Source: a virus
Taxonomy: Duplodnaviria; Heunggongvirae; Uroviricota; Caudoviricetes
Length of the DNA: 64,000 nucleotides
Strand: one strand, 5' to 3'
IMG/VR virus record: IMGVR_UViG_2740892441_000001
Shown: piece by piece, positions 3,101-63,216 of the stretch
How the letters are laid out: each line of letters opens with the position of its first letter
How positions within the stretch are numbered: the stretch's first letter is position 1
Translations under genes and position numbers: made by a program
Notes under the pieces: model-generated
Seen by the model: only the letters and a program-made list of their open reading frames with translations
What the model was told of the DNA's origin: nothing
Database searches by the model: none

Positions 3101-3496
3101 TTAAGCGAATACGCTTTCAGGGATTAAGGTATCAGCAGGAATGCCGGATGTAATACGCAGACCGTACTGGCCAATCCAGGTGGTGCTGGTGTTCAGGCTG
3201 GAGGCGAATACGGAATTAACCATATTCATCATGGTTTCAAACACCTCTTCATCAACCTGGCGGAAGTAGTTCTCGATTTTCAGCAGCAGCGGGTCAGTTG
3301 CATCGAGAATGGACTGGTATTGAGTCGCGTACTCGCCGCCGGAGGCATCACCTTTACGCACGATCGTACTGGCCTGTACTTCGGCACCAGTTTCGGTGTT
3401 GTACGTAACAACGGTGATTTTTGCCACATTCTTACCTTCGGCGGTTTCAGAGGCATAGTAAACATCAACTGTCAGTTTTTCGCGTTTAACGGTCAT
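3101..3496 (-). CDS. hypothetical protein
   Basis: Start refined to internal ATG with GGAGAG RBS (131 aa). Confidence 0.5.
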   Translation of the reverse strand: MTVKREKLTVDVYYASETAEGKNVAKITVVTYNTETGAEVQASTIVRKGDASGGEYATQYQSILDATDPLLLKIENYFRQVDEEVFETMMNMVNSVFASSLNTSTTWIGQYGLRITSGIPADTLIPESVFA

Positions 3497-3539
3497 TTCA
3501 CTCTCCGTAGTGTATTGGTTATTTTTATATTCTATGATC

Positions 3540-3555
3540 GTAAGTATGTACTTAC
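3540..3555. promoter_or_regulatory. palindrome GTAAGTA-TG-TACTTAC (operator-like motif B)
   Basis: Member of dispersed ATAAGTA-N-TACTTAT palindrome family. Confidence 0.3.
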
Positions 3556-3560
3556 AAAAC

Positions 3561-3588
3561 AAAAAAGCCCCGTAAGGATGGCGGGGCT
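3561..3588 (-). terminator. rho-independent terminator (GCCCCG..CGGGGC with U-run on minus strand)
   Basis: GC hairpin adjacent to A-run on plus strand; lies just downstream of gene 3623-3934. Confidence 0.5.
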
Positions 3589-3622
3589 GTCGTACTGTCG
3601 ACTAATTACCACTTGCACATTA

Positions 3623-3934
3623 TCAGGCTATTGCCATCACTGATGCTCTCTGAATCTCTTGCTGGGCCACGCGGTTAACTTCCATCAAAGCCAGTTCGAG
3701 CTGATGTTCCGGCCACATTCTTTGAAACGCCATCCAGCCTTTTCCACGCTGGCGGCGAACATTCATTACATAACGAGTAAAGGTGTTTTTATCGAAAGAC
3801 ACCGCTGTTTCACGGAACAGACGAATAGAGGTTCCATTGGCAACGATGTCCAGCAAAGTTAATTGAGCAACCAGCGCAGGCTTCTCTTTTCTCTTCTGGT
3901 CTTTGTCCAGACCAAGAACCAATGATTTTTTCAT
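3623..3934 (-). CDS. hypothetical protein
   Basis: Start refined to ATG with GGAG RBS (103 aa); promoter motif upstream. Confidence 0.45.
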   Translation of the reverse strand: MKKSLVLGLDKDQKRKEKPALVAQLTLLDIVANGTSIRLFRETAVSFDKNTFTRYVMNVRRQRGKGWMAFQRMWPEHQLELALMEVNRVAQQEIQRASVMAIA

Positions 3935-3945
3935 CACAACTCCGT

Positions 3946-3986
3946 AAACAACTTGTTTTCTCAATGGCGTAAATAATACCAGTAAG
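3946..3986 (-). promoter_or_regulatory. conserved early-promoter-like motif
   Basis: AAACAACTTGTTTTCTCAATGGCGTAAATAATACC. Confidence 0.35.
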
Positions 3987-4087
3987 AAAACGGCTACAAA
4001 GCATATTGATCAGGTGCATGAGCGATATGCAGGTTCTTCCCTGCGGCTATAGAGAAATTAAGCCAGCAATGCTGGCTTTGGTTGGGG

Positions 4088-4417
4088 TTACTCGAATACT
4101 TCAAGAAACTCCTGAACGTCCCAATGCTGGACGAGGTGAAGATAGACCTTAGAAATCACGTCATTTTCGCTATCGCATGTGAAGTAGTACTTCTGGCTGC
4201 GGTTGTATGTGTCCACACAAAATTCGCTCATATCCATAAAGTCAGCATCTTCACCCATGTCGCAAATCATCAAAGCAGGTGCGTCATCACGAGTCATCAG
4301 CTCAAGCACCCACCGCGAATTGATCAGAGTGGAAGACCAACCTTCTAACTCATAAAACTGATCAAACTCTTTTTGAGTTAATTTCTTGATTTGGTTGATG
4401 TCGATATTTGCAAACAT
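4088..4417 (-). CDS. hypothetical acidic small protein
   Basis: 109 aa, D/E-rich; promoter motif upstream. Confidence 0.5.
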   Translation of the reverse strand: MFANIDINQIKKLTQKEFDQFYELEGWSSTLINSRWVLELMTRDDAPALMICDMGEDADFMDMSEFCVDTYNRSQKYYFTCDSENDVISKVYLHLVQHWDVQEFLEVFE

Positions 4418-5089: not shown

Positions 5090-5500
5090 GCTCACTCCTT
5101 CCAGAACGTTCTATACGGCAACTATTTCTGTTGGTGAATTGGGTGTGTTGTTTTCTCTGTCGGTGTATGTGGTTTCGTTCGTTTTGCGGTGGTTCTTCTA
5201 TAGGGTGTTCTCGTCGTTTTGGTGATTGTTCTTCTCCGTCTATGGAGTAATGGCAGGTGGGCGATTCCTTTCGTTATTGTGTTTGAGTTGTTTGTCTGGA
5301 GTGCGTGAAGGGCTTTTGTAGTTATTCGTGTATTGGGTAATGGCGTTTCCCGTGATTGTTCTGTTTCGTGTCTTTTGGGATTGAAGAATCCTTGCGGTAA
5401 CAGGCTTCGTTGGGGTTTCAGTGATTCTGGTGTTTCTTCGCTGTTTGGGTAATGGCGTGTCGTGGGTATCGCGCGTATGAATGTTTTCGGATTGCCTGTG
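5090..5500. repeat. G+T-rich low-complexity tract (plus strand), ORF-free
   Basis: Extreme strand compositional skew; the only ORFs are low-complexity minus-strand artefacts. Confidence 0.45.
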
Positions 5501-5504
5501 AAAG

Positions 5505-5590
5505 TTAGGTTGGTTGTCCGGTAGCCTGGGAAGAAGAGGTGGGTCTTTTCGGTAGCCTGCCATAAAGAGGTTGGTTGTTTTTGGGAATGG
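5505..5590. repeat. second copy of the ~80 bp repeat element seen at 1845-1932
   Basis: Alignable by eye to 1845-1932. Confidence 0.4.
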
Positions 5591-5980
5591 CATATGCGTT
5601 ATTTAGTTGTTTTGTTATGCCTGAAAATAAGTTGTTTATATGGTTATGTAACGCAACGGGAACGATTTTGAGCGTGTGTTTTTGTTGGTAGTGTGTTGGG
5701 TCGTCTGTGGTGAAAATTGGACGCTGTGGCGCTGTCTGCTGCGTAGGATTGCGGGTATAAGAAGTAATGTGTGAAAACGTCAATTTTTTAGACCAAATCG
5801 GGTGAAAGCGTTGACGTTTCGTTGATCTGTTATTCAGTTGTTTTCTTGTTTGTATAAACAACTATAACCTATTGATATTTAAGGGTGTGATTGCAGGTAT
5901 GGAAGGGGAGTAGTGGCGATCAACGGATTCTTATAGAAAAGAATCAAATTGTGACCGCCATTATCAATAAGTTGCAACCG

Positions 5981-6550
5981 TTAGTTGTTCAGATAAACAT
6001 TTGGAACACGGACGTAGAAGTTCCTGTCACCGGTAAGTTCCAGAGTAATGTTAATGTCATTACCATTGTCTAGTGTAGCCGTTGCTCTATAGAACTTATC
6101 CGTCACCTTGTCCTCTATTGTCACCTTCATACATTTTGGTGCAGTCGAACCGTTATTCTCTTTCAGAATAGTTGTCACGAGAGGGCAGGCTGCTTCTTCA
6201 AGAGCAACCTCGTCCTTGTGTGGGATGCCGATGAAGATAATCCAAGCCAGCGACGCAACGATTATGATAAATGGCACTCTGCTGCCTTTTGTAATAGTCG
6301 CGCGCTTCCAGAGATAGACAGGCAGGAGGAATACCCCCCATAGAATTGAAGGTGGTTCACAGCCAGACTCCGATAGAGCCATTCTGTCAGCTACTAACAA
6401 ACCGATGGTAGTTACACCCCCAATTATAATAGCGTAATTGGTATACTCTTCCGGCAATACTCCAAAGAAGAAAGGCATGAACGCTAGAATCCACGCATAA
6501 ATGTTATTCAGAGGTTTTGTTTGTTGGTTCTGGGTTTCCATCACATCCAT
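5981..6550 (-). CDS. hypothetical membrane protein (several hydrophobic segments)
   Basis: 189 aa with multiple hydrophobic stretches. Confidence 0.5.
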   Translation of the reverse strand: MDVMETQNQQTKPLNNIYAWILAFMPFFFGVLPEEYTNYAIIIGGVTTIGLLVADRMALSESGCEPPSILWGVFLLPVYLWKRATITKGSRVPFIIIVASLAWIIFIGIPHKDEVALEEAACPLVTTILKENNGSTAPKCMKVTIEDKVTDKFYRATATLDNGNDINITLELTGDRNFYVRVPNVYLNN

Positions 6551-7385: not shown

Positions 7386-9419
7386 TTACTTAACCTGGTG
7401 GCCAGGTTTAGCACCAGCATCCGGGCTTAACAGGAAGATGTCTTTCCCGCCGGGGCCAGCAGCCATCACCATGCCTTCGGAGATACCGAAACGCATTTTA
7501 CGCGGAGCCAGGTTAGCCACCATAATGGTGTGACGGCCAATCAGTGCCTGTGGGTCTGGATAAGCGGAACGGATGCCTGAGAAGACATTGCGTTTTTCAC
7601 CGCCGAGATCCAGCGTCAGGCGCAGCAGTTTGTCAGAACCTTCAACAAAGTCTGCGTTTTCGATCAGCGCCACGCGCAGGTCAACTTTGGCAAAGTCGTC
7701 AAAGGTGATGGTTTCCTGAATCGGGTCGTCTGCCAGCGGGCCAGTAACTGGCGCGGCAGTAGCTTTCACTTCTTCTTTAGACGCTTCCACCAATGCTTCC
7801 ACCTGTTTCATGTCGATACGGTTATACAGTGCTTTGAACGGATTCACTTTATGGCCCAGCAGCGGTTGCTGGATACCATCCCAGGTCAGTTCTGTATTCA
7901 GGAATGCTTCTGCACGTTCAGTCAGTTTCGGCAGTACCGGCTTCAGGTACGTCATCAGCACGCGGAACAGGTTAATGCCCATAGAGCAAATCGCCTGCAG
8001 ATCGGCATCGCGTCCTTCCTGCTTCGCCACCACCCACGGAGCCTGTTCATCGACATAGCGGTTAGCCAGGTCAGCCAATGCCATGATTTCACGGATAGCT
8101 TTACCAAATTCGCGGCTTTCCCATGCTTCGCCAATCACTTCAGCGGCATCAGTAAAGGTTTTGTACAGTTGCGAGTCAGCCAGTTCGCTTGCCAGCACGC
8201 CGTCAAAACGCTTGTTGATAAAGCCTGCATTACGGGAGGCCAGGTTAACCACTTTGTTCACGATATCGGCATTCACGCGCTGAACGAAATCCTCCAGGTT
8301 GAGATCGATATCATCAATGCGCGAAGAGAGTTTCGCAGTGTAGTAGTAACGCAGGCTGTCGGCGTCAAAATGATTCATCCAGGTGCTGGCTTTAATAAAG
8401 GTGCCGCGAGACTTGGACATCTTCGCGCCGTTCACCGTCACATAGCCGTGAACAAACAGGTTGGTCGGCTTGCGGAAGTTGCTGCCTTCCAGCATGGCAG
8501 GCCAGAACAGGCTGTGGAAGTAAACGATATCTTTACCGATGAAGTGGTACAGCTCGGCGGTGGAGTCTTTCTTCCAGTATTCATCGAAGCTGGTAGTGTC
8601 GCCGCGCTTGTCGCACAGATTCTTGAAGGAACCCATGTAGCCAATCGGTGCGTCCAGCCAGACGTAGAAATATTTACCCGGCGCGTTCGGAATTTCAAAA
8701 CCGAAGTAAGGTGCGTCGCGGGAGATATCCCACTGTTGCAGACCAGATTCAAACCACTCCTGCATTTTGTTTGCCACCTGCTCCTGCAACGCACCGCTGC
8801 GGGTCCATGCCTGCAACATTTCGCTGAAAGAGGGCAGATCAAAGAAGAAGTGTTCAGAATCACGCATTACCGGCGTAGCGCCAGAAACTACCGATTTCGG
8901 CTCAATCAGTTCAGTCGGGCTGTAGGTCGCGCCGCAAACTTCACAGTTATCGCCGTATTGATCTGGCGCTTTACATTTCGGACAGGTGCCTTTCACAAAA
9001 CGATCCGGCAGGAACATGCCTTTTTCCGGGTCGTACAACTGAGAGATAGTGCGGTTTTTAATAAAACCGTTCTCTTTCAGGCGAGTATAGATAAGCTCAG
9101 ACAGCTGGCGGTTCTCTTCGCTGTGCGTCGAGTGATAGTTGTCATAGCTGATGTTAAAGCCTGCGAAATCAGTCTGGTGTTCCTGGCTCATTTCGCCAAT
9201 CATCTGTTCCGGTGTGATACCAAGCTGCTGTGCTTTCAGCATGATCGGCGTACCGTGGGCATCGTCGGCGCAGATGAAGTTGACCTCGTGGCCGCGCATT
9301 CGCTGGTAACGGACCCAGACATCAGCCTGGATGTGCTCCAGCATATGGCCGAGGTGGATTGAGCCGTTAGCGTACGGCAGCGCGCACGTCACCAGAATTT
9401 TCTTCGCGACTTGGGTCAT
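7386..9419 (-). CDS. metG: methionyl-tRNA synthetase
   Basis: 677 aa translation matches E. coli MetG along its length as recalled from memory ([31 protein letters not shown]...KPGHQVK); start set at the MTQVAKK ATG, upstream extension of the track ORF judged spurious. Confidence 0.95.
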
Positions 9420-9576
9420 AGTAGGCATTACTTCTTTGTAGTGAAAAGGGGCTTGATAGTAACAAAATGGCCTTATGTCTGCCATGTGATAACAGCATTT
9501 CTCATAAATGATTAAATGTCGTAGCTGGAGTACACTACAAGGCGACAATTGCGCAAATTAAAATAAAGGAGACGGG

Positions 9577-10677
9577 ATGAGCGAGTCCAAATCGCCGGAT
9601 GCCCTGAGAGCAATGGTAGCCGGTACGCTGGCTAATTTTCAGCACCCAACCCTGAAGCACAACCTGACTACGCTTAAAGCGTTACACCATGTTGCGTTGA
9701 TGGATGACACACTGCATGTCGAACTAATCATGCCTTTCGTGTGGAATAAGCCTTTTGAAGACCTGAAAGAGCAATGTAGTGGTGATCTGCTCCGTATCAC
9801 TGGCGCAAAGGCTATCGACTGGAAGCTGTCGTACAACATTGCCACGCTTAAGCGCGTCAAAAACCAACCAGGCATTAATGGCGTTAAGAACATCATCGCC
9901 GTCAGCTCAGGCAAGGGCGGTGTAGGCAAATCGTCCACAGCAGTAAACTTGGCACTGGCGTTGGCTGCTGAAGGTGCGAAAGTTGGTATTTTGGATGCCG
10001 ATATCTACGGTCCATCAATTCCAACCATGCTGGGTGCGGAAAACCAACGTCCAACCTCACCGGACGGTACTCACATGGCACCTATCATGTCTCATGGCCT
10101 GGCAACCAACTCTATTGGTTATCTGGTCACCGACGACAATGCAATGGTGTGGCGTGGACCGATGGCCAGCAAGGCGTTAATGCAGATGTTGCAGGAAACT
10201 CTATGGCCTGATCTGGACTATCTCGTTCTCGATATGCCGCCGGGCACTGGTGATATTCAATTGACGCTGGCGCAGAACATTCCTGTAACTGGTGCTGTTG
10301 TGGTAACTACGCCGCAAGATATCGCGCTGATCGATGCGAAGAAAGGCATTGTGATGTTCGAAAAAGTCGAAGTGCCGGTACTGGGTATCGTCGAAAACAT
10401 GAGTGTGCATATTTGCAGTAACTGCGGTCATCACGAGCCAATTTTTGGCACCGGTGGCGCACAGAAGCTGGCCGAGAAATACAACACGCAGTTGTTAGGC
10501 CAAATGCCACTTCATATCTCTCTTCGTGAAGATCTGGATAACGGAACACCAACCGTTATTAGTCGTCCAGATAGCGAATTTACGGCTATTTATCGTGACC
10601 TCGCAGATCGCGTTGCTGCCCAAATGTATTGGCAAGGTGAAGTAATACCTGGCGAAATCGCATTCCGCGCAGTGTGA
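9577..10677 (+). CDS. apbC: Fe-S cluster carrier ATPase ApbC/Mrp
   Basis: 366 aa; strong match to enterobacterial Mrp/ApbC (P-loop SSGKGGVGKS, CSNCGHHEP motif); divergent from metG as in enterobacterial chromosomes. Confidence 0.93.
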   Translation: MSESKSPDALRAMVAGTLANFQHPTLKHNLTTLKALHHVALMDDTLHVELIMPFVWNKPFEDLKEQCSGDLLRITGAKAIDWKLSYNIATLKRVKNQPGINGVKNIIAVSSGKGGVGKSSTAVNLALALAAEGAKVGILDADIYGPSIPTMLGAENQRPTSPDGTHMAPIMSHGLATNSIGYLVTDDNAMVWRGPMASKALMQMLQETLWPDLDYLVLDMPPGTGDIQLTLAQNIPVTGAVVVTTPQDIALIDAKKGIVMFEKVEVPVLGIVENMSVHICSNCGHHEPIFGTGGAQKLAEKYNTQLLGQMPLHISLREDLDNGTPTVISRPDSEFTAIYRDLADRVAAQMYWQGEVIPGEIAFRAV

Positions 10678-13936: not shown

Positions 13937-14548
13937 TCACTCTCCTTTGATGCGAATGCCAGGGGCGCGTGGCACATTAACTTCCACGATGCGCACTGTT
14001 GGTTTGTACATCTCAATCGCTGTCAGCCAGTCAGCTCCTGTCATGCGCTTTTCCGCATCGCCATTAGTCCACTGAACCGGTACACCAATAGCCTTCATCG
14101 CGATTTCTATTTCCCCGGCAATGGCGCTTTTTCCGCAACCAGTAAAACCAGATACAACGACCAGAACTTCACCTTTGGCTGGTTTTATTTCCCGTGCTTC
14201 CAGTTCTGCAATGCGCTTACTTCCATCCGAGATAACGCCCTCGTAATACTCACGCTGCTCGTTGAGTTTTGATTTTGCCAACTCCAGTTGTTTTGTTAGT
14301 TCTGCAATACGACAAACATCGTTGATACGCGTTTCCTCTAATGCGTTGCTCTCATCCAGTAGCGCCAGCACGGTTTCTGGTCCGGCCAGAAATTTGAAGG
14401 CGTTGAGGGCATCAATATCAACACCGCTATCTTTAAGTTCCTGTTCGCTTATCAGATCATCATCAACTGGCAACATTAACAGGCGTTCCATTGCCGGAAT
14501 TGCACGCTCTGCCGCCTCACGCAGTGCCTGATAGTCAATCTTGCTCAC
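13937..14548 (-). CDS. hypothetical protein, paralogous module shared with 14545-14988, short Walker-A-like GFTGCGKS
   Basis: 203 aa; shares VLALLDE..LE.T.I..CRI.EL segment with the adjacent gene. Confidence 0.5.
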
Positions 14549-14988
14549 TGGATGACTCCTTTACGAAGCAGTTCAGCAATACTTACGCATATCTCTGCGC
14601 CTCTAATCAGCCCCGGAACGTTCTTGTTTGGCCCAACTTCACCATCAACAAAATCAATCATCGCGTTACGAGCCATATCCACGCCCTGCGCACGTACTTC
14701 AGCCAGAAAAGCATCGGTAGCTGGAGTTTCGCTGTGGTGCAGGGCATCGTTGATAATCATTGCAGCAACTCCGGCCTGCCCTGCATCCGTGACCGACACA
14801 TGCTCAAGAGTTACGGCCATTGCGTGTTTCAGCCCAGCGTTCTCTGCCACCAGCGCAGCGAGATTAGTCTCAAGCTCTGAAATTCGGCACGTGGCATCAA
14901 TATTTGTGTCCTCCAGCCGCTTAATTTCATCCAGTAGTGCCAGCACATCCTGCGGATGCTCTTCGACCTCTTCAAATTCTTCTTCCAT
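14545..14988 (-). CDS. hypothetical acidic protein, paralogous module shared with 13937-14548
   Basis: 147 aa; 4-nt overlap with downstream gene. Confidence 0.5.
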   Translation of the reverse strand: MEEEFEEVEEHPQDVLALLDEIKRLEDTNIDATCRISELETNLAALVAENAGLKHAMAVTLEHVSVTDAGQAGVAAMIINDALHHSETPATDAFLAEVRAQGVDMARNAMIDFVDGEVGPNKNVPGLIRGAEICVSIAELLRKGVIQ

Positions 14989-15022
14989 ATATCACCTCAA
15001 ATAAGTGGTTTGCTGCCTGAGC

Positions 15023-15352
15023 TTATTTTGCTTTGAGCAACTTCATCGCTTCGTCAATGCGTGATTGTGTCCCTGCGTTTGGCTCCACTACCTGAAGGCG
15101 GCGGGCATCTTCAAGAAGTTTCGCAATCATTTCTTTAAGTACTTCGTTATCGTTATTCATGAGCGTGCTCCTGTCAGTTAGCTTTGAGTAACGCGCCGCG
15201 ATTTGCATCTCCACGGTTCCGTCATGCAATGCAACAATCTCTCGGACAGCAACCGGGTGGTTGATGTAGTCTTCGCCGGTATATTTTCTTTTCTGACCAA
15301 CGCCACCATGAGCGCCAGCGGCGAACATATGAGCTTCGGAAATACTAGACAT
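15023..15352 (-). CDS. short HD-domain protein resembling the N-terminal half of Mesh1/SpoT-type (p)ppGpp hydrolases (tentative)
   Basis: AHGGVGQKRKYTGEDYINHPVAV...ALHDGTVE matches the H...HD signature; only 109 aa. Confidence 0.45.
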   Translation of the reverse strand: MSSISEAHMFAAGAHGGVGQKRKYTGEDYINHPVAVREIVALHDGTVEMQIAARYSKLTDRSTLMNNDNEVLKEMIAKLLEDARRLQVVEPNAGTQSRIDEAMKLLKAK

Positions 15353-15360
15353 TCTTAACT

Positions 15361-15441
15361 CCGTTGTTTTCTAGTTGTGGTTATTTTCACAAATAAGAAA
15401 AGGCAGAAAACAATTTATTCAAGGCCACAACTTATGGCCTT
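15361..15441 (-). promoter_or_regulatory. promoter-like motif plus hairpin
   Basis: TTGTTTTCTAGTTGTGGTTATT...AAAAGGCAGAAAACAATTTATTC AAGGCCA..TGGCCTT. Confidence 0.35.
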
Positions 15442-15471
15442 TATTTATTCATGCCGAAGGATTTGTAGCGT

Positions 15472-31741: not shown

Positions 31742-34056
31742 TCAGATTTTGCAGGCTCCGTCGCACTCATCTTCTGGCTCGACGGCTACAGCTTGCGTAA
31801 GTGGATTCTGCGCTTCGTCGTCATCACGCTTTCCTGCACCATCTCTGGTGTTGTGGTAGTAAAGCGTTTTAACTCCCATCTTGTAGGCGAGAAGCAAATC
31901 TGACAGTAGCGTCATCATTGGGACTTTATCGCCTTCAAAGCGAGAAGGGTCATAGTTGGTATTGGCTGAAATAGCCTGGTCAAAGAACTTCTGGATGATC
32001 GCCACCTTTGTCAGATAGCCGCGGTTGTCCGGCATATCCCACAGGTATTCATACTGTTCCTTCAGTTTTTCAAACTCAGGCACGACCATCTTGACGATGC
32101 CGTCCTTAGAAGATTTCACTGACACCGGGCCACGAGGCGGTTCGATGCCGTTGGTGGAATTAGTGATCTGGCTGGAAGTCTCGCATGGCATTTGTGCCGT
32201 CAGTGTGGAGTTGCGAAGGCCGTATTTTGCAATACGTTCACGCAGTTCTTCCCACGGCATCTTTAACTCAAAGTTGGTTTCGCCGCTTTCGTCTAATGAA
32301 GAACGGTAATGGTCGATCGGCAACTGACCAATTGCGTATTTGGTCTGCTCAAACCAGTCACACTCACCTTTTGCTTCAGCAAGTCGGCAGCTGGCGTCAA
32401 GAAGGTAATACTGGATAGCTTCGAACGTTTCATGCACCAGTTTATTGCCAGCGGTATCAGAATAACGAACGCCATTCTTTGCCAGGTAATAAGCAAAGTT
32501 GGTTACACCAATTCCCAGGCTACGACGAGCTTTGGCAGGCACTTCGGCTGCCTCCATCGGATAGTCTTGATAATCCAGTAACGAATCCAGTGCAGCAACG
32601 GCATAGAACGCCACCTCTTTAAGAGACTCCAGTGAACGGATGGCTCCGAGGTTAAAAGCGGATAAAGTGCATAGCGCGATCTCACCGTTCGGGTCGTCGG
32701 TAAATGCCAGTGGACGGGTGGGTAGAGTGATCTCCATGCACAGGTTTGACTGGCGAACAGGTGCAAGAGCAGGAATGAAAGCGCCATGCTCGTTAATATG
32801 ATCGACGTTCGCAATATAAATTCGGCCCGTGGACGCTCGTTCCTGCATCAGAGATGAGAACAGCTCAATGGCAGGTACTGACTTCTTGCGAATTGAATCA
32901 TCGGCTTCGTATTTATGGTACAGCTTTTCAAACAGATCCTGGTCTGTGAAGAAGGCTTCGTACATATCAGGCACATCATGCGGCTGAACAGAGTGATGTT
33001 CTCGCTTCTGACGAGTCGACGGTACATTAGACGGTTACTCATGACGCCGTAATCAAGATGGCGAACGCGGTTTTCATCAATACCACGGTTATTTTTCACC
33101 ACCAGCAGACTTTCAACCTCAAGATGCCAAATCGGGTAAAACGCTGTTGCTGCGCCACCACGAACACCACCTTGCGAACAAGATTTAACAGCCGTCTGGA
33201 AATGCTTCAGGAATGGAATAACTCCGGTATGGGTGGCTTCACCATTGCGGATCTCACTGCCCAGCGCACGGATACGGCCAAAACCAATACCAATTCCAGC
33301 ACGACGTGAAACGTAGTCGATAATTGCGGCTGAAGCTGCACTAATCCCTTTCAGACTATCGCCAGACTCAATCAGCACACAACTGGAGAACTGACGGGTT
33401 GGAGTACGGACGCCGGCCATGATTGGTGTGGGCAGAGACAGCTTGAACGTACTTGTAACGTCATAGAAACCTTTGACCATCTCCATACGTGTTTTGCCCG
33501 CGCAGTCGTCTTCCCAATTCTGGAACAGACACATGCCCACCAGCATATAGATATGTTGCGGGCCTTCGTGAATCTCACCAGTAACACGGTTTTGAACGAG
33601 GTATTTGCTTTGCAACTGCACCGTAGCTGCATAGCCAAAAAGATCGTCACGTTTCGGCTTAATGTAATTGCCGAGTTCTTCGATCTCTTCAAATGAATAA
33701 TGTGTCAGCAAATCCTTGTCATAAACGCCCTTGTTAACGTTCTTGACAATGTGTTGGTAGAAGTTCGGATAGTCGTAACGACCGAAGGCATCTTTGCGGA
33801 TTTTAAAAATGTTCAGGCGGGCAGCCACCTGCGAGTAATTTGGTGCATCTGGTGAGATCAAATCAGCGGCAGATTTAACCAAAGCCTCATGCAACTGGCT
33901 GGTGGTAATCCCATCAAAAATGCTGGTCGCAGCTCCCATTGCTACAGCGGATGCGCTTACACCACGAATGCCTTCTACGCCATACATTACGACGCGGTTG
34001 TATTTTTCTTCGGATAACGGCTCTGTTTGGCCGTTACGTTTTACGATGCTTATCAT
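31742..34056 (-). CDS. nrdA: ribonucleotide reductase alpha subunit, split by a single-base frameshift near 32975-32985
   Basis: ORFs 32848-34056 and 31742-32974 both match E. coli NrdA; restoring one C after ...TLFS reconstitutes FSPHDVPDMYEAFF. Confidence 0.85.
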
Positions 34057-45619: not shown

Positions 45620-47959
45620 TTAATCTTCTAGTTCTTCTGTTGGTGATGTCTTCTCTCGTCGGTCATCTATCGCCTGTAACGCAGCAATGATTTCAGCCAG
45701 TGGCTTCTCCCGATACATCTCGACGATCTGCGATTTGGTGTATTTCTTGTCACCAATTTCAACTCTCCCGCTGGCGTTCTTTGGCAGGTATCCTTCTTCC
45801 AGCATGTACTCGACGAGCGATTCGATAACGTCGAGGCCACGAGTAGGATCGAAGTAGAATTTCCAGGTGCATTTGCCATACGGTGGTGCAACTTTGTTTT
45901 TGATGCACTCTGCGCCTACGTCCTGACCGATCTTCTCTTTCCCATCCTTCATCACCGATGCACCGAGACGGATGCGCACAGAAGCGTAAAACTTCGGTGA
46001 ATCGCCGCCTGGAGACGTAGTAGGGTCGCCAAACATTACACCGATTTTTGTGCGAACCTGATTCAAGAAGATGATGCAGGCGTTGTATTTGCGTGCCCAC
46101 AAAGCCAGAGTAGGGAAGTTCGCACTCGTCGCACGCGCCAGTGCCGTATTGTCGTTCATGTTTAGCTGATCTTTGTCTTTGGCTGTGCCTTCAGCCATCT
46201 TTTCGAACTTCTCGGCTTTGGAGTTCGGAACCATAGACGCAAGAGAGTCAGCCACGATACAGATAGGTGCTGATTCGGGGATAAGCTCTTCATCACGAAC
46301 CAATTTAAGTATTGTGCCGATCAACTCTACAGAGTCTTCGAAGGTATCTGGCTGCTTGTATACCCACTGACCGTCATCCTCATCTGCATTCAAACCATTG
46401 GCTACAGCCAGGCCAACGTCAAAACTGTTTTCATGATCGAGGAATACCGCCAGACCATCTTGTTTTTGAGCGGAGATCATCGCTGCTGTTGCAAGGAATG
46501 TGTTGTGGCTGATAATCCCGTTAGACCAGAAAGAGTGTGTTTCCGGCATCGCTACGTCGAACGTTGGTGCTTCACCTTCCTCAATAGCCACGACTTCGTC
46601 GTAGAACAAGTTAGAGCCAATTACCGCTGCCAGTTGTGCAAACAGATGCTCGTTAAAACGATTCTTTCTGCCAATGAAGGAGACATAGATTTCTCGCAGT
46701 TTGTCTATTCCGACACGATCGCCGCGGCCAATAACGTGGTCTACCAGAGCGTAGTCTTCACGGGTGGTCTTGGTGAGCGACTCGTAGAGTGATTTCACTA
46801 AGCCGCTGATGTGCGGAACATAGCCTGAGTAAGTGCGGTCAAAACCAATGTCCCGTTTGGTTGCCACTGATAAACGTGCCGGAGATTCGAAACCAATCGT
46901 TGACAGAAAAAGGTCGTAATTAGAGCCACTGAATGACAGCCGGTAATATGTATTTTCATAACCCGCGACGTGTTTTTCAGAGATAGTTGACGTAATCCCC
47001 AGATTCAGGAGCATGAGGCGAATTTGCTGTAGCAGCAGCCCACTCGCGCTCACAACCTCAATGCAGCGACCATCATTGACGTGGCATTCCAGCTCAAAGT
47101 AGCCGCGAAGGAATGCAATTTGAGCCTCGCTATTGGCGCGACGCACACTCAACGGAACCTGCTTGCCAGCAGCTTTCTCATACTCCAGACCATATTCTTT
47201 AAAAAGCAGCGAACGCACCTCTTTGCTAAACAGCACATGGTCTTCCGAGCCGTTATGTTTTCTCGTAACTGGCATCTTGTCTGATACCAGCGAAATGAGG
47301 CGGTAGTACTCATCCTTGATGAAAGGATCTGTGTTAGAAAAATTCACTGAATTTTCAGAGGCCACGTATCCGTCAGCAATTAAATAGCCCATCAGTTTTG
47401 CGATATTGGCATCCAGGTGCTGATCGCCGAATTGATGTGTGCCAACCATTGAAGGAATCGTGTCGCCTACACTGATTTTTTCAGCATGTCGCCAGACGAC
47501 ATTACCTAAGTCGTCAACCACACGGATTGGGTGACGGAACGTAGCCTCGATATAACCGCCTGATGCCAGCTTAATACGCTTGAATTTGCGACGGTTGTTC
47601 CATGTCAGGTGTGAGGTCTTCTCTATCACGCCATTTTCATTGATGAGTCCAACGTTATGCTCTACATCGCGAGTAGTGCATGTCGCTTTGTACCCTTCAA
47701 TCTCAAACAACTCTTTCACTGTTACCATTCCACGCTCCGTCAGCAGCATGGTGTCTGCGGTAACACATTTCCCCGCACTTGGAGGACCGAATACTTCGAC
47801 GATACGACCACATGGGAAACCGCCATCGTAACGACCGGAAATCGCTTTGTTTAACGGAGGAAAGCCTGTGTCAATCCAATGAGTTACTTTCTGAATTTCG
47901 TCGTTGCTACCGATTTTCTTTTTCAGAGCAAGTGCCAGTGCGGATTTTCCTTTTGCCAT
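45620..47959 (-). CDS. recA: RecA-like recombinase interrupted by an in-frame intein
   Basis: Exteins give GPPSAGK|TFLAT (Walker A) and a RecA-like C-terminal core (IFLNQVRTKIGVMFGDPTTSPGG..KFYASVRIRL); about 357 aa without the intein. Confidence 0.8.
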   Translation of the reverse strand: MAKGKSALALALKKKIGSNDEIQKVTHWIDTGFPPLNKAISGRYDGGFPCGRIVEVFGPPSAGKCVTADTMLLTERGMVTVKELFEIEGYKATCTTRDVEHNVGLINENGVIEKTSHLTWNNRRKFKRIKLASGGYIEATFRHPIRVVDDLGNVVWRHAEKISVGDTIPSMVGTHQFGDQHLDANIAKLMGYLIADGYVASENSVNFSNTDPFIKDEYYRLISLVSDKMPVTRKHNGSEDHVLFSKEVRSLLFKEYGLEYEKAAGKQVPLSVRRANSEAQIAFLRGYFELECHVNDGRCIEVVSASGLLLQQIRLMLLNLGITSTISEKHVAGYENTYYRLSFSGSNYDLFLSTIGFESPARLSVATKRDIGFDRTYSGYVPHISGLVKSLYESLTKTTREDYALVDHVIGRGDRVGIDKLREIYVSFIGRKNRFNEHLFAQLAAVIGSNLFYDEVVAIEEGEAPTFDVAMPETHSFWSNGIISHNTFLATAAMISAQKQDGLAVFLDHENSFDVGLAVANGLNADEDDGQWVYKQPDTFEDSVELIGTILKLVRDEELIPESAPICIVADSLASMVPNSKAEKFEKMAEGTAKDKDQLNMNDNTALARATSANFPTLALWARKYNACIIFLNQVRTKIGVMFGDPTTSPGGDSPKFYASVRIRLGASVMKDGKEKIGQDVGAECIKNKVAPPYGKCTWKFYFDPTRGLDVIESLVEYMLEEGYLPKNASGRVEIGDKKYTKSQIVEMYREKPLAEIIAALQAIDDRREKTSPTEELED
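46502..47767 (-). mobile_element. intein with LAGLIDADG homing-endonuclease domain inserted in the RecA P-loop
   Basis: Begins with Cys after GPPSAGK, ends ...SHN before Thr; LAGLIDADG-like blocks LMGYLIADGYV and FLRGYFELECHV; 422 aa. Confidence 0.7.
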
Positions 47960-51945: not shown

Positions 51946-52241
51946 GTAAAGGTGTCTGGCATCGTCTGGTTCGTTAACGTTTACTAAACCAATGGTGACA
52001 AAAATTAGTTATCTTTGAAAAATAAAGGTTGCATGAAAAGAAGGGGTATGCGTTAATAGCATCGTTGGTTTGCAATACAGACCTTATGTAAGCAGTTTTA
52101 GTAAAGCAGTCTCAGTTCAGTGTTATCTTCTGATTTCCCTTCTTCGTGAGTCTCCTCCTTAAGTGCCTAAGTAAGTCCCAATCTATACAGATCAAATTCT
52201 CGCCGCACTATGTGGCTCACAAAATTAAGAAGGTAATATCT

Positions 52242-52457
52242 ATGTCTAATAAAATGACTGGTTTAGTAAAATGGTTTAACTCTGATAAAGGCTTTGGCTT
52301 TATTTCTCCTGCTGATGGCAGTAAAGATGTTTTTGTACATTTTTCGGCAATTCAGAGTAATAATTTCCGCACTTTGGAAGAAGGCCAGCAGGTCGAATTC
52401 TCTATCGAGAATGGGGCTAAAGGCCCAGCAGCAGCAAATGTCGTTGCTCTAAGTTGA
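52242..52457 (+). CDS. cspA: cold-shock protein, CspA family
   Basis: [38 protein letters not shown]...[10 protein letters not shown] matches CspA-family proteins; long ORF-free leader upstream. Confidence 0.8.
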
Positions 52458-52733
52458 TTCAACGCTGATGATCCTCATTTCTACAATAACGAAGACGGTG
52501 TAAGCCTGAGTGGATAGATTTGTAGGATTGTACAAGTTGAATAAATTAGCATGGTAAGGCCATGCTAATTAAATCGACACAACGGCCAGTTTATTCCATA
52601 AAAGTGAATTGCCCATTGTGGCGAAATGCGGGGTTGCCGCATGAATAGTCAAAGGCAGAAGCTAACTGCCGGCATGGCAAAACAAAGTGCGTAAGAGGAG
52701 TGACTTCCTCAACAAGCGTCATAATTCTTTATA

Positions 52734-52760: not shown

Positions 52761-55700
52761 TTACTTATTTATTGTCTCCGCGATATCAGCCAGAATGGCC
52801 TCCAGTCGCTCTCCTTCTTCCGGTCGGAAGTACAGGATATTCGGGTTAAATCCGTAGAAGACGGTTGCATCAAGCTCTGGGAAGTACTCCTTACGACCAA
52901 TCAGATCTGATGGTTTACTCTTATTGTTAAATAGTGCGGTTGAACGACTACCACACGTCAAAATGTAGGTCGGACGCACCAGATTGATCTCTTCACGCAT
53001 AAAGTCGGTGAACTGGCCGATCTCGTCTTTGGTGTAGTCTTTTTCTTTGTCTTTAACCTTCTTGCAAACGCCTGTGACATAGAGATCGCCCATGCGTAAA
53101 TCTCCAGCCGTCAATAGCTTGGCCTTAAAGTCGTCGTATCCGTTCTCCATGAAGTAACCGGTTCGAGCATCATTGCCGTTCGCATTGTCCAGAATGATCA
53201 TGATTTTCGGCTTAATACCAATGCTGGGGCGGATTAGTTCATCACCTAAGCCCATTTCAGCCGCCATCCGTGTCATGAGCACGTTAATCTCAGCCGAACG
53301 TTTGGGGTTCATCTCAAACGGACGTGAGGCTTTAACTGCGTCTATGACAAGGTTTCCCATCAATTCAGCCTGGTCGCGTAGGCGCTCTGGATCAGTTGCT
53401 GGCAGACTACCTGGCTCGATGGATGCAAACGCCCCTACTTTTTGCAGCGATTCGCGCACTCGACTATTACAGGCACGTTTCTCGACAGCTTCTTCGAATT
53501 GCGCCAGTGACTCGAATTTGCCGCCAACTTTTTCTCGCGCTCTCATGATGGCTTGGCAGCCATTCTCAGAACACCCCTTCACAGCAGAGAAGGGCGCATA
53601 CAGCACCTGGCTGCCATCTTCAAGCGTGCGGATCTCGATTCGGTTAGATGACACGTTAACGTCTGGTGGCAATACGCGAATACCATAGGTCAGCGCATCT
53701 TTAACCAGCCCCTGGTGTTTATCTTCGCCAAGAATAGTGAGAGCAGCAGCGAAAAACTCTGCGGGATAATGAGTTTTCAACCACATAGATTGATAACTGA
53801 TTAAGGAGTAGGCAACAGAGTGTGATTTATTGAACTGGTAGGCACCATTTTTTTCGAATGCGGTCCAGATCTCCTTCGCTTTCATCTCTGATAGCCCTGG
53901 ATGTGACGCTGTAACGCGTACTGCGTTTATAGGTAGTTTTGCGCCGTGCTCAAGTGCCTCTTCGACAGTTTTCAGAGTTCCGTCTTCGCATTTAAAATGT
54001 TCCGCACGGTGAATGCGCTGTGTAGTGCCATCTTCCAGCTCAACGTCTATCCAGCCAGCTTGAGCCTGAACGATGAACTTCTCGCCCATGCTCTTCATTT
54101 TTTCCATGTTCTTCTTACCGATTGCGGAACGCACACCGTCAGCTTCAGCCATTGTGAAGCCGGCAAGCAATCGAGTCGCGTTCATCGTCTGTTCCTGATA
54201 GAGAATCACGCCATTTGTTTCCGCGGTAAGTTCATCAAGAACGGGGTGTAATGATTCCGGCGTCATAAAGCCTTTGGCGACAGAAACATAGTCGTCCAAC
54301 ATGCCGGATTGGATCGGGCCAGGTCGGAAGAGTGCGGTCGTGGCGACAACGGTTTTAAAGCTCATTGGCTCAATGCCACCGCCTAGATCTTTAAGCAGCT
54401 TGCGCATGGGGCCGGACTCCAGCTGGAATACGCCCTGTGTATACCCTGCAGCAAAACCATCCAGCACCTTGCGATCTTCAAGAGAAATGGCATCAAGATT
54501 GATATCTTCACCTGTGTTCTCTTTTATGTAGCGTTTTGCACTATCGAGCAAATCGAGAGTTGCCAGGCCAAGCACGTCCAGCTTAATTAGGCCCATAGCC
54601 TCGCAGTAACGCTTGTCAAATGCGATACAACGCGCGTCACCACGGCGCTCAACCGGTGTACGTTCTGTCAGAGGAACACCTGCTACAATCATCCCTGCCG
54701 CATGTCTACCAAAGCCACGCATAAGGCTTTGTAACTTGCAGGCTGCATTGAATGCATCAGGATATTTTGTTGCGTATTTGTCGAGACTTGCCAGTTGTTC
54801 GCGCAGCTCTTCCAATGGAAGGCTATCATCCTCGACGTTCTTCAGTTCTTTTGATACCGCCATATCTGCGGACTCCACACCATAAATACGAGCGGTGTCA
54901 CGTAGTGCAGAGCTGCGCCCAGGTAGGTGAAGTTCGGAATGCCTGCAACGTAATCTTCGCCGTAGCGTTCATTCAGATACTCGATCACCTCATGGCGACG
55001 TGCCTGGCTGAAGTCCAAGTCCGCATCCGGCAAGTCGAGACGCTCAGGGTTGATGAAACGCTCAAACAGAAGACCGTGACGGATTGGGTCGACGTTGGTT
55101 ATGCCTATGCACCACGCCACCAGAGAACCGGCAGAGGAACCACGACCAGGCCCGACAGGAATGCCAGTTTCACGGCTGTGATTCATCAGATCGCGTACCA
55201 TCAGGAAGTAACCACAAAATCCCAGGCGAGTCAGCGTGTTCATTTCGTACTTTAGCCGCTCAACATAAACCCTGTTCTCAGAAGCAGGTGGTGTGTATCC
55301 AAACTCTTTTGTGGTAAGACGTTTACGCAGCCCTGCAACAGCCAGTTTCATCAGCGTTGCAGGTTCGTCGTCTGCCATCTTGGGCAGTGCTGGTGGCAAT
55401 TCATGCCAGCGCCATGTGCAGGCATCGATAATGGAGTCCTGCGTTGTTGAGGCCATTGCAGCTGTTACCGGCACATCCATGCGAACGGAGAAGGCTTTAA
55501 GCGCCTCAAGGAGATGGCGACGACCATTGATGGCGTTATCTCGCTGGTGGGGGATACGCAGACGATGCGGCTGGTCGATTTTTATGTTGTTCGTAACCAT
55601 GTGCGCAATGTCTTTAATGTCTGCATCGTCGATCGATTCGTAATAAGCGGGATAGAACGCTACTGGCTCTATTTTCAGTGCGCTGGCTACTTTCATCGCT

Positions 55701-56278
55701 CGGACGTTAATCTGGTCGTAGAATGGGGTAGGGTGCGGATAAACCACGCTATAGAAGTTGTCTTTCCCGCCCGCTGTAATCAGTGAGCTTATGATTTTTG
55801 CAAAATCGTTGCGTTGGAACACGCTACCGATGTCGGAAGTGAGCAGGATGATGTTGCCTTTGGCATATGTAGAAACCAACTGTTCGAGCGAGAGACGCGG
55901 TACAAAGTAGAACTGTTCTCGTGTGTTGGCCACCGTCATTAGTTCGCAGATGTCGCGATATCCTTGCTCATTTTTAATTAGAGCGGTAAACGAGTAGTTA
56001 CGTCCCCGCTCTAATGATTCCATACATCTCATAGATTCTTTAGCAAGTTTAGCCCGGTGCTCGTATGTGGGATCATCAACGATATTTAGTTTCACACCAC
56101 AAATAACCGCCATGTCGTCACCAGCGGCACGTTGTAGTGGAATAACACTCGCAATATTCATGCTATCTGCTGAAATTACAGCGGTGTAGCCAGCTTCTCT
56201 GGCAATCTTCACCGCGTTTTCTGCTTTTAGAGCCGACTCCCCAAGTGAGAAGTCAGTTCGAACCATCAGTGCTTTCAT
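52761..56278 (-). CDS. dnaE: DNA polymerase III alpha-like (DnaE-type) polymerase, apparent frameshift near 54842-54878
   Basis: N-terminal ORF has PHP domain and GIPVGPGRGSSAGSLVAW..DPIRHGLLFERFINPER; C-terminal ORF has GLIKLDVLGLATL, GVFQLESGPM, FNKSHSVAYSLISYQSMWLKTHYPAEF. Confidence 0.8.
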
Positions 56279-62968: not shown

Positions 62969-63055
62969 TGGCGGAGAGTAATGGAATCGAACCATCATCG
63001 CTTGCGCAATGGGACGGTTTTCAAGACCGCTTGAGCACCATGCTCTCTACTCTCC
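62969..63055 (-). tRNA. tRNA-Ser(TGA)
   Basis: Hand-folded: acceptor GGAGAGT/ACTCTCC, anticodon loop CTTGAAA, long variable arm, T-loop TTCGATT, encoded CCA; 87 nt. Confidence 0.7.
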
Positions 63056-63063
63056 AATTGTGT

Positions 63064-63139
63064 TGGTGCCGGTTAACGGATTCGAACCGCTGACATCCTG
63101 CTTACAAGGCAGGTGCTCTACCAACTGAGCTAAACCGGC
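63064..63139 (-). tRNA. tRNA-Thr(TGT)
   Basis: Hand-folded: acceptor GCCGGTT/AACCGGC, D-arm GCTC-AGTTGGTA-GAGC, anticodon loop CTTGTAA, T-loop TTCGAAT, encoded CCA; 76 nt. Confidence 0.8.
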
Positions 63140-63141
63140 AT

Positions 63142-63216
63142 TGGCGATGGTGGGTGGATTCGAACCACCGACCAGTTGGTTAACAGCCAACTGCTCTACC
63201 GCTGAGCTACACCATC
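63142..63216 (-). tRNA. tRNA-Asn(GTT)
   Basis: Hand-folded: acceptor GATGGTG/CACCATC, anticodon loop CTGTTAA, T-arm GGTGG-TTCGAAT-CCACC, encoded CCA; 75 nt. Confidence 0.8.

Follow-up and report, generated by a model that had tools for sequence, protein, structure and literature searches.

A 109-residue HD_4 reading frame in an SSU5-like Escherichia coli phage-plasmid is very probably a recombination scar in a PaSpo-type alarmone hydrolase gene

A 109-aa open reading frame, running from ATG to TAA at positions 15023-15352 on the minus strand of a 64,000-nt viral sequence (IMG/VR record IMGVR_UViG_2740892441_000001, the whole of which we call the window), raises the question of whether a mobile element carries a shortened but working alarmone hydrolase or only the remains of one. 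A sequence-only reading had recognized the N-terminal signature of RelA/SpoT-type HD domains in the product and placed the gene in an operon of unknown genes, and on both points it was correct: the product scores 30.7 bits against Pfam HD_4 (curated cut-off 27.2; E 3.1e-7), with weak matches to the SpoT/RelA NCBIfam models, and the neighboring genes are co-directional and mostly of no known function. Although the profile cut-off is passed, the real HD_4 similarity is limited to aa 1-53. The PHROG families divide the product in the same way, with aa 4-55 resembling the phage "phosphohydrolase" families phrog_32047 and phrog_990 and aa 68-107 resembling phrog_32391 (E 7.7e-27), a separate family of 43 aa. 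Against solved structures the protein aligned over aa 3-41 only (E 0.004), and a single-sequence AlphaFold2 run returned a low-confidence model (mean pLDDT 55, pTM 0.42). The parts into which the reading frame and its surroundings resolve are as follows, in the direction of the gene:

15353..15471, minus strand: ancestral intergenic region 5′ of the stump, conserved with plasmid NZ_CP027358.1 (L002) and SSU5
15359..15362, minus strand: GGAG ribosome-binding site of the stump, 6 nt 5′ of the ATG, read from the sequence
15193..15352, minus strand: 5′ stump of a PaSpo-type small alarmone hydrolase (HD_4) gene, nt 1-160, aa 1-53, from nucleotide identity and Pfam HD_4
15193..15218, minus strand: recombination joint, from alignments of the HD gene, the lambdoid N-leader and the window
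15161..15192, minus strand: lambdoid post-nutL N-gene leader, read in frame as RYSKLTDRSTL, aligning with phage SfI and P22-like prophage leaders
15023..15160, minus strand: 45-aa small lambdoid ORF (MNNDNEVLKEMIAKLLEDARRLQVVEPNAGTQSRIDEAMKLLKAK), phrog_32391 at E 7.7e-27
14731..15192, minus strand: the whole foreign insert, 462 nt, a lambdoid early-left-operon patchwork, from the local BLAST map
14545..14988, minus strand: 147-aa Ead/Ea22-like ORF, from Pfam Ead_Ea22

The chimeric nature of the gene is evident from its nucleotide matches. When the 330-nt ORF was compared by megablast with 5,426 complete E. coli genomes, no record covered at least 80% of it, and the matches fell into two disjoint sets. 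One set covers nt 1-160 at 99-100% identity and consists of "HD domain-containing protein" genes on plasmids of ~110 kb; the other covers nt 119-330 at about 85% identity and consists of a "hypothetical protein" in chromosomal prophages, next to antiterminator N. Nucleotides 1-160 of the stump are 100% identical to the start of 642-nt (213-aa) HD genes on ~110-kb E. coli plasmids, and the stump retains the native start codon. On plasmid NZ_CP027358.1 the 642-nt HD gene is preceded, like the stump in the window, by the DUF4942, 234-aa and 126-aa genes, the whole region upstream of the stump being common to plasmids with an intact HD gene. The stump thus stands in orthologous position to the PaSpo gene, with the same flanking genes and 98.8% nucleotide identity through gene nt 160. 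Within the upstream intergenic region lies a 7-bp hairpin (15421-15441), which was called terminator-like on the plus strand only; a promoter and terminator scan around the ORF returned neither on the minus strand. The 109 aa are therefore made up of 53/213 parental residues, 11 residues of translated lambdoid leader and an unrelated small ORF of 45 aa. With a full-length parent of 213 aa against a chimera of 109 aa, it is wrong to describe the product as about 60 residues too short and missing a small internal piece, and the 56 residues beyond the stump are not HD. A frameshift was considered as the cause and ruled out, the sequence past nt 160 being non-homologous in all frames. Elsewhere in the window there is no further piece of the HD gene and no second HD_4 gene.

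The full-length relative shows what the stump has lost. The 213-aa protein matches HD_4 at E 1.1e-18, with profile positions 2-133 of 156 over aa 8-135, and aligns with SpoT (7QPS, E 1.7e-13), Rel (5XNX, E 5e-13) and MESH1 (3NR1, E 1.8e-12), which makes it a clear predicted hydrolase of RelA/SpoT type. Its INHP (H32), AALLHDVVEDT (H56, D57) and KLADLLDN (D121) segments align with the I(L/T/N)HP, AALLHD(V/T)(I/V)EDT and KLAD segments, respectively, of SpoT, Rel and MESH1, and in MESH1 and Rel the counterparts of these four residues (MESH1 H35, H61, D62 and D122) form the Mn2+ site. The AALLHDVVED segment starts one residue past the junction at aa 53 and is absent from the chimera, in which the metal tetrad H...HD...D is reduced to the first ligand, H32 in INHP; H56, D57 and D121 are gone. 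The chimera shares with MESH1 (3NR1, 5VXA, 3NQW) and Rel/SpoT (7QPS, 5XNX, 1VJ7) the N-terminal helix-loop AH..Q.RK..G.PYI.HP, whereas the HD domains of those proteins are complete, span ~150-180 residues and carry an H-HD-D Mn2+ site. About 75% of the HD domain is missing from the chimera, which falls short of the helical core of about 130-150 residues of a full-length domain. The "LHD" at aa 42-44, which had been taken for the HD dyad, is not one: the residues aligned with it are NMR in SpoT and WHG in SSU5_099, and the position is non-conserved. That an internal segment seemed absent is probably due to this tripeptide having been read as the HD motif. An incomplete active site, named beforehand in the sequence-only reading as telling against its proposal, is thus what the alignment reveals, and a truncated but working Mesh1/SpoT-like alarmone hydrolase is unsupported, three of the four metal ligands being lost and the C-terminal half being foreign. 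Because only the first His and approximately the first quarter of the parent are kept, the chimera is predicted to be unable to hydrolyse (p)ppGpp, (p)ppApp or pyrophosphorylated tRNA, and we infer that the 109-aa product has no hydrolase activity.

The identity of the parent connects the stump to a characterized family. The 213-aa protein is 87% identical to SSU5_099 (213 aa) of Salmonella phage SSU5, the only gene named guanosine polyphosphate pyrophosphohydrolase in 100 kb of the 103-kb SSU5 record, and from that annotation SSU5_099 would be the PaSpo small alarmone hydrolase that has been tested. PaSpo of SSU5 neutralises all five toxSAS toxins tried (PMC7229694), is reported to take off the tRNA modification, a pyrophosphate, put on by FaRel2 (bioRxiv 10.1101/2024.07.05.602228) and serves to make CapRel purification possible (PMC9712102). 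SSU5_099 and its orthologues (e.g., WP_033803595.1) occupy the same locus as the stump, with the DUF4942 methylase, 234-aa and 126-aa genes upstream, and 49 of the first 53 residues of SSU5_099 are identical to the stump. They differ from it in that the stump lacks residues 54-213, including AALLHDVVED, the KLAD aspartate and the C-terminal extension, and has foreign sequence there instead. The suggested role as a mobile-element alarmone hydrolase accordingly stands for the intact family, for which it was already known through PaSpo, but not for the copy in the window, which is a remnant.

The left junction can be placed to the base. It lies in a 26-nt patch, AACCGTGGAGAT-GCAA-ATC-G-CGGCGC (aligned as AACCGTGGAGAT-nnnn-ATC-n-CGGCGC), in which 21 of the 26 positions are common to the HD gene and the lambdoid N-leader and which includes an identical 12-mer and 6-mer. 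The window tracks the HD gene through the CGGCGC hexamer (15193) and then runs on as GTTACTCAAAGCTAACTGACAGGAG. The leader that follows stands directly before N in phage SfI and before a 43-aa ORF in a P22-like prophage, and it contains an AGGAG ribosome-binding site (15168-15172) 7 nt 5′ of an internal ATG (15160). What keeps the fused frame open is a leader without stops in this frame, as is also the case in the donor type, where it forms part of a 70-aa ORF (L003, a P22-like prophage of strain E94). The in-frame fusion of stump, leader and small ORF is by chance.

The foreign DNA extends beyond the 109-aa ORF. Local BLAST, read in minus-strand order, gave the following map, in which the insert is pieced together from matches to a P22-like prophage, to phage SfI/lambda sequence near ral and to prophage ead/Ea22-like genes:

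Window 15998-15193: best match NZ_CP027358.1 (L002) 3355-4160, 98.8%
Window 15228-15023: best match the P22-like prophage (L003) 4008-4208, 84.5%
Window 15016-14937: SfI/lambda sequence near ral, 94%
Window 14955-14690: prophage ead/Ea22-like genes, 95-97%
Window 14730-14208: best match NZ_CP027358.1 (L002) 5496-6018, 98%

The 462-nt insert stands in for 1,335 nt of the intact relative (L002 4161-5495), and what was lost in the replacement comprises HD gene codons 54-213, an entire 180-aa gene and ~105 codons at the start of a 166-aa gene. A single donor covering at least 80% of window 14690-15235 was not found in the complete E. coli genomes, and the insert, judged by its separate matches, is itself a mosaic. 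At its other end the 147-aa Ead/Ea22-like ORF is also an in-frame chimera, composed of a lambdoid 5′ part and the last 61 codons of the plasmid 166-aa gene, and is the right-hand end of the same replacement. The 180-aa gene (L002 4639-5181) is conserved in SSU5-like plasmids, where it overlaps the intact PaSpo stop by ATGA, and is absent from the window; SSU5_100, with the same position and the same 4-nt overlap, is its candidate counterpart by position.

The C-terminal part of the chimera belongs to a small phage protein family. The phrog_32391 match spans profile positions 2-41 of 43, and the ORF has ~85% nucleotide identity to the gene for WP_001701111.1 (43 aa), which lies between nutL and N in a P22-like prophage. 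In L003 the order is leader, 43-aa ORF and then directly the antiterminator N gene, and the motifs 5′ of the leader there are presumably a boxA/boxB-like nutL site. Homology with the window begins downstream of these motifs. The 45 aa of the window thus share the family, the leader and the AGGAG with phrog_32391 and WP_001701111.1 but differ in lacking the nut site and the N gene, in residing on a phage-plasmid and in being fused to a hydrolase stump; 3′ of the small ORF in the window there is no N gene, an Ea22-like gene standing there instead, so that the ORF does not occupy the position between nutL and N. A tblastn comparison with phage genomes gave only distant, unannotated homologues (~67-75% aa identity) in Pectobacterium, Serratia, Aeromonas and Cronobacter phages, and neither NCBIfam nor Pfam gave a match to the 45-aa ORF; the phage homologues suggest a genuine coding gene. 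The small ORF keeps its own ATG (15160) and AGGAG as in the donor-type leader, and the 45-aa protein, translatable from that AGGAG, is likely the only part to keep a function of its own. Given the native ribosome-binding site, start codon and frame, the 109-aa protein may well be made too.

The element that carries the chimera is an SSU5-like phage-plasmid. Non-mobilizable E. coli and Shigella plasmids of ~110 kb match the 16 kb around the ORF at 95-97% identity, the locus shows synteny with Salmonella phage SSU5, and the window is 100% identical over 6.3 kb to JUDX01000018.1 (108,886 bp) of E. coli assembly GCA_001630835.1. It also encodes a RepA-type initiator, DNA polymerase III alpha, ribonucleotide reductase, a RecA-like protein, an integrase-family recombinase and a tRNA cluster. 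Several of these genes have features of their own. The dnaE-like gene (52761-56278, minus strand) is split by a frameshift near 54911-54920 into ORFs of 478 and 705 aa, the SSU5 orthologue being a single 1172-aa gene with 93% identity on both sides of the break, and is either a pseudogene or the product of a sequencing error. The nrdA-like ribonucleotide reductase alpha gene (31742-34056, minus strand) has a frameshift at ~32983 that gives ORFs of 402 and 410 aa, and is intact in SSU5 (771 aa). In the RecA-like recombinase (45620-47959, minus strand; 779 aa), ~410 aa containing Intein_splicing and LAGLIDADG_3 domains are inserted in frame, whereas the 358-aa SSU5 orthologue is without an intein. 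A full-length match to the Rfam cspA thermoregulator at 52064-52481 (plus strand; 189.7 bits) implies a putative plasmid-borne cold-shock protein gene with its 5′ UTR. The tRNA cluster (62969-63216, minus strand) consists of Ser-TGA, Thr-TGT and Asn-GTT genes, and 7386-10677 holds plasmid-borne paralogues of methionyl-tRNA synthetase (metG) and of the Fe-S carrier ApbC/Mrp, which are also present in related E. coli phage-plasmids.

Among related plasmids the chimera is real but rare, and the intact gene is far more common. At a coverage of at least 80%, 181 PLSDB plasmid records contain the intact protein, spread over Escherichia, Salmonella, Enterobacter, Citrobacter and Klebsiella, and one exact variant of it occurs on 441 contigs. 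The chimera, absent at that coverage from PLSDB, INPHARED and the 5,426 complete E. coli genomes, was read on 12 contigs, with one further variant contig, from at least 6 independent samples. These 12 contigs come from different samples assembled in NCBI, ENA and Logan, and over 6.3 kb their identity is 99.8-100%. The variant allele (P0002; L013 4001-4330) sits in a backbone that differs from the window by 2.4% and switches earlier, within the 12-mer, giving ...TVEISITARYSK...; its small-ORF segment is identical to that of the window, it has F10S at a Phe conserved in the family, and a different Ea22-like gene lies downstream. The two junctions reflect either a crossover that occurred twice in the same patch or a stump that was later converted by an intact allele. 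The occurrence of the chimera in two backbones 2.4% apart indicates that it has therefore persisted or spread and is not a one-off accident. Other broken alleles encode 139 aa (P0020, 139 contigs), 64 aa (P0021, 32 contigs) and 59 aa (P0027, 8 contigs). Like the chimera, the decayed alleles P0020, P0021, P0027, P0022 and P0023 are cut after the conserved N-terminus, but their break points and downstream sequences differ, because of which we regard them as independent events. Some of the short decayed entries may be contig-end fragments; the 180- to 183-aa proteins grouped in the cluster of the 213-aa protein are the product of the next downstream gene and were excluded from the length evidence. 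The truncated and fused alleles among P0019-P0027 suggest repeated PaSpo decay in the plasmid family, and in some plasmids (such as L001) the locus has no HD gene at all. As an accessory region it is variable and prone to decay.

On this evidence the 109-aa ORF is very probably a recombination scar in an SSU5-like E. coli phage-plasmid and thus a degraded gene, the fallback that the sequence-only reading had offered; that fallback is borne out, the cause being segment replacement by recombination rather than a frameshift. We propose that the ancestral locus would have held a 213-aa PaSpo-type small alarmone hydrolase gene of the SSU5_099 family, into which lambdoid-prophage early-left-operon DNA, with the N leader, the 45-aa ORF and the 5′ portion of a gene resembling Ea22, would have recombined. 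The left join would have formed at the 26-nt partial-identity patch inside the hydrolase gene and the right join within Ea22-like homology, with deletion of codons 54-213, the overlapping 180-aa gene and ~105 codons at the start of the gene after it, and the outcome for the element would be the loss of PaSpo. We infer the order of these events, and likewise which of the two products, of 109 or 45 aa, is made. That the ORF could instead be a minimal active hydrolase by which a mobile element acts on the stringent response or on alarmone-based defence is highly improbable: clearing the HD_4 cut-off, weakly matching SpoT/RelA models and descending from a family of proven anti-toxSAS hydrolases would speak for it, but a product with a quarter of its parent, without H56, D57 and D121, with aa 54-109 from an unrelated family and with an "LHD" not conserved even in SSU5 speaks against it.

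Recombination might also have produced something new and non-catalytic, either an N-terminally extended lambdoid protein or a stump that serves as a nucleotide- or partner-binding decoy. The frame is continuous, the native ribosome-binding site is intact, the conserved GQKRKYTGEDYINHP motif is kept in the stump, and the allele occurs in two diverged backbones and several samples, all of which would fit such a fusion. We nevertheless consider it unlikely, since the stop-free leader of the donor and a 1-in-3 chance of an in-frame result make the open frame unsurprising, the allele is rare relative to the intact gene, F10S in the variant hints at relaxed constraint, and the gene has been truncated in several other, non-homologous ways. 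An assembly or sequencing artefact that joined unrelated contigs has a vanishingly small probability; nothing specific favors it, although the dnaE-like and nrdA-like frameshifts could be sequencing errors, and the same junction recurs on all 12 contigs from separate sources and in a second allele. A recombination scar remains the reading that we prefer. Beyond it there is a slim chance that the PaSpo locus is recurrently inactivated to the advantage of the element in its plasmid (lysogenic) lifestyle, or that the fusion itself is selected; the basis for a recurrent target is the pair of crossover variants in one microhomology patch together with the several independent truncations.

The role of the intact family on mobile elements is already known, and the chimera bears on how that family is counted and on how it is lost. 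An ORF above the Pfam HD_4 threshold can be a dead remnant, and this one is not to be counted as a phage alarmone hydrolase or anti-defence gene. It also provides a base-resolution case of lambdoid prophage DNA patched into an SSU5-like phage-plasmid via short partial homology, with two in-frame chimeras as the result. If the PaSpo locus is a target of recurrent inactivation, loss of the hydrolase could be advantageous to the element as a plasmid. This plasmid lineage lacks PaSpo, a known counter to toxSAS/CapRel-type systems, and would be predicted to be more sensitive to them.
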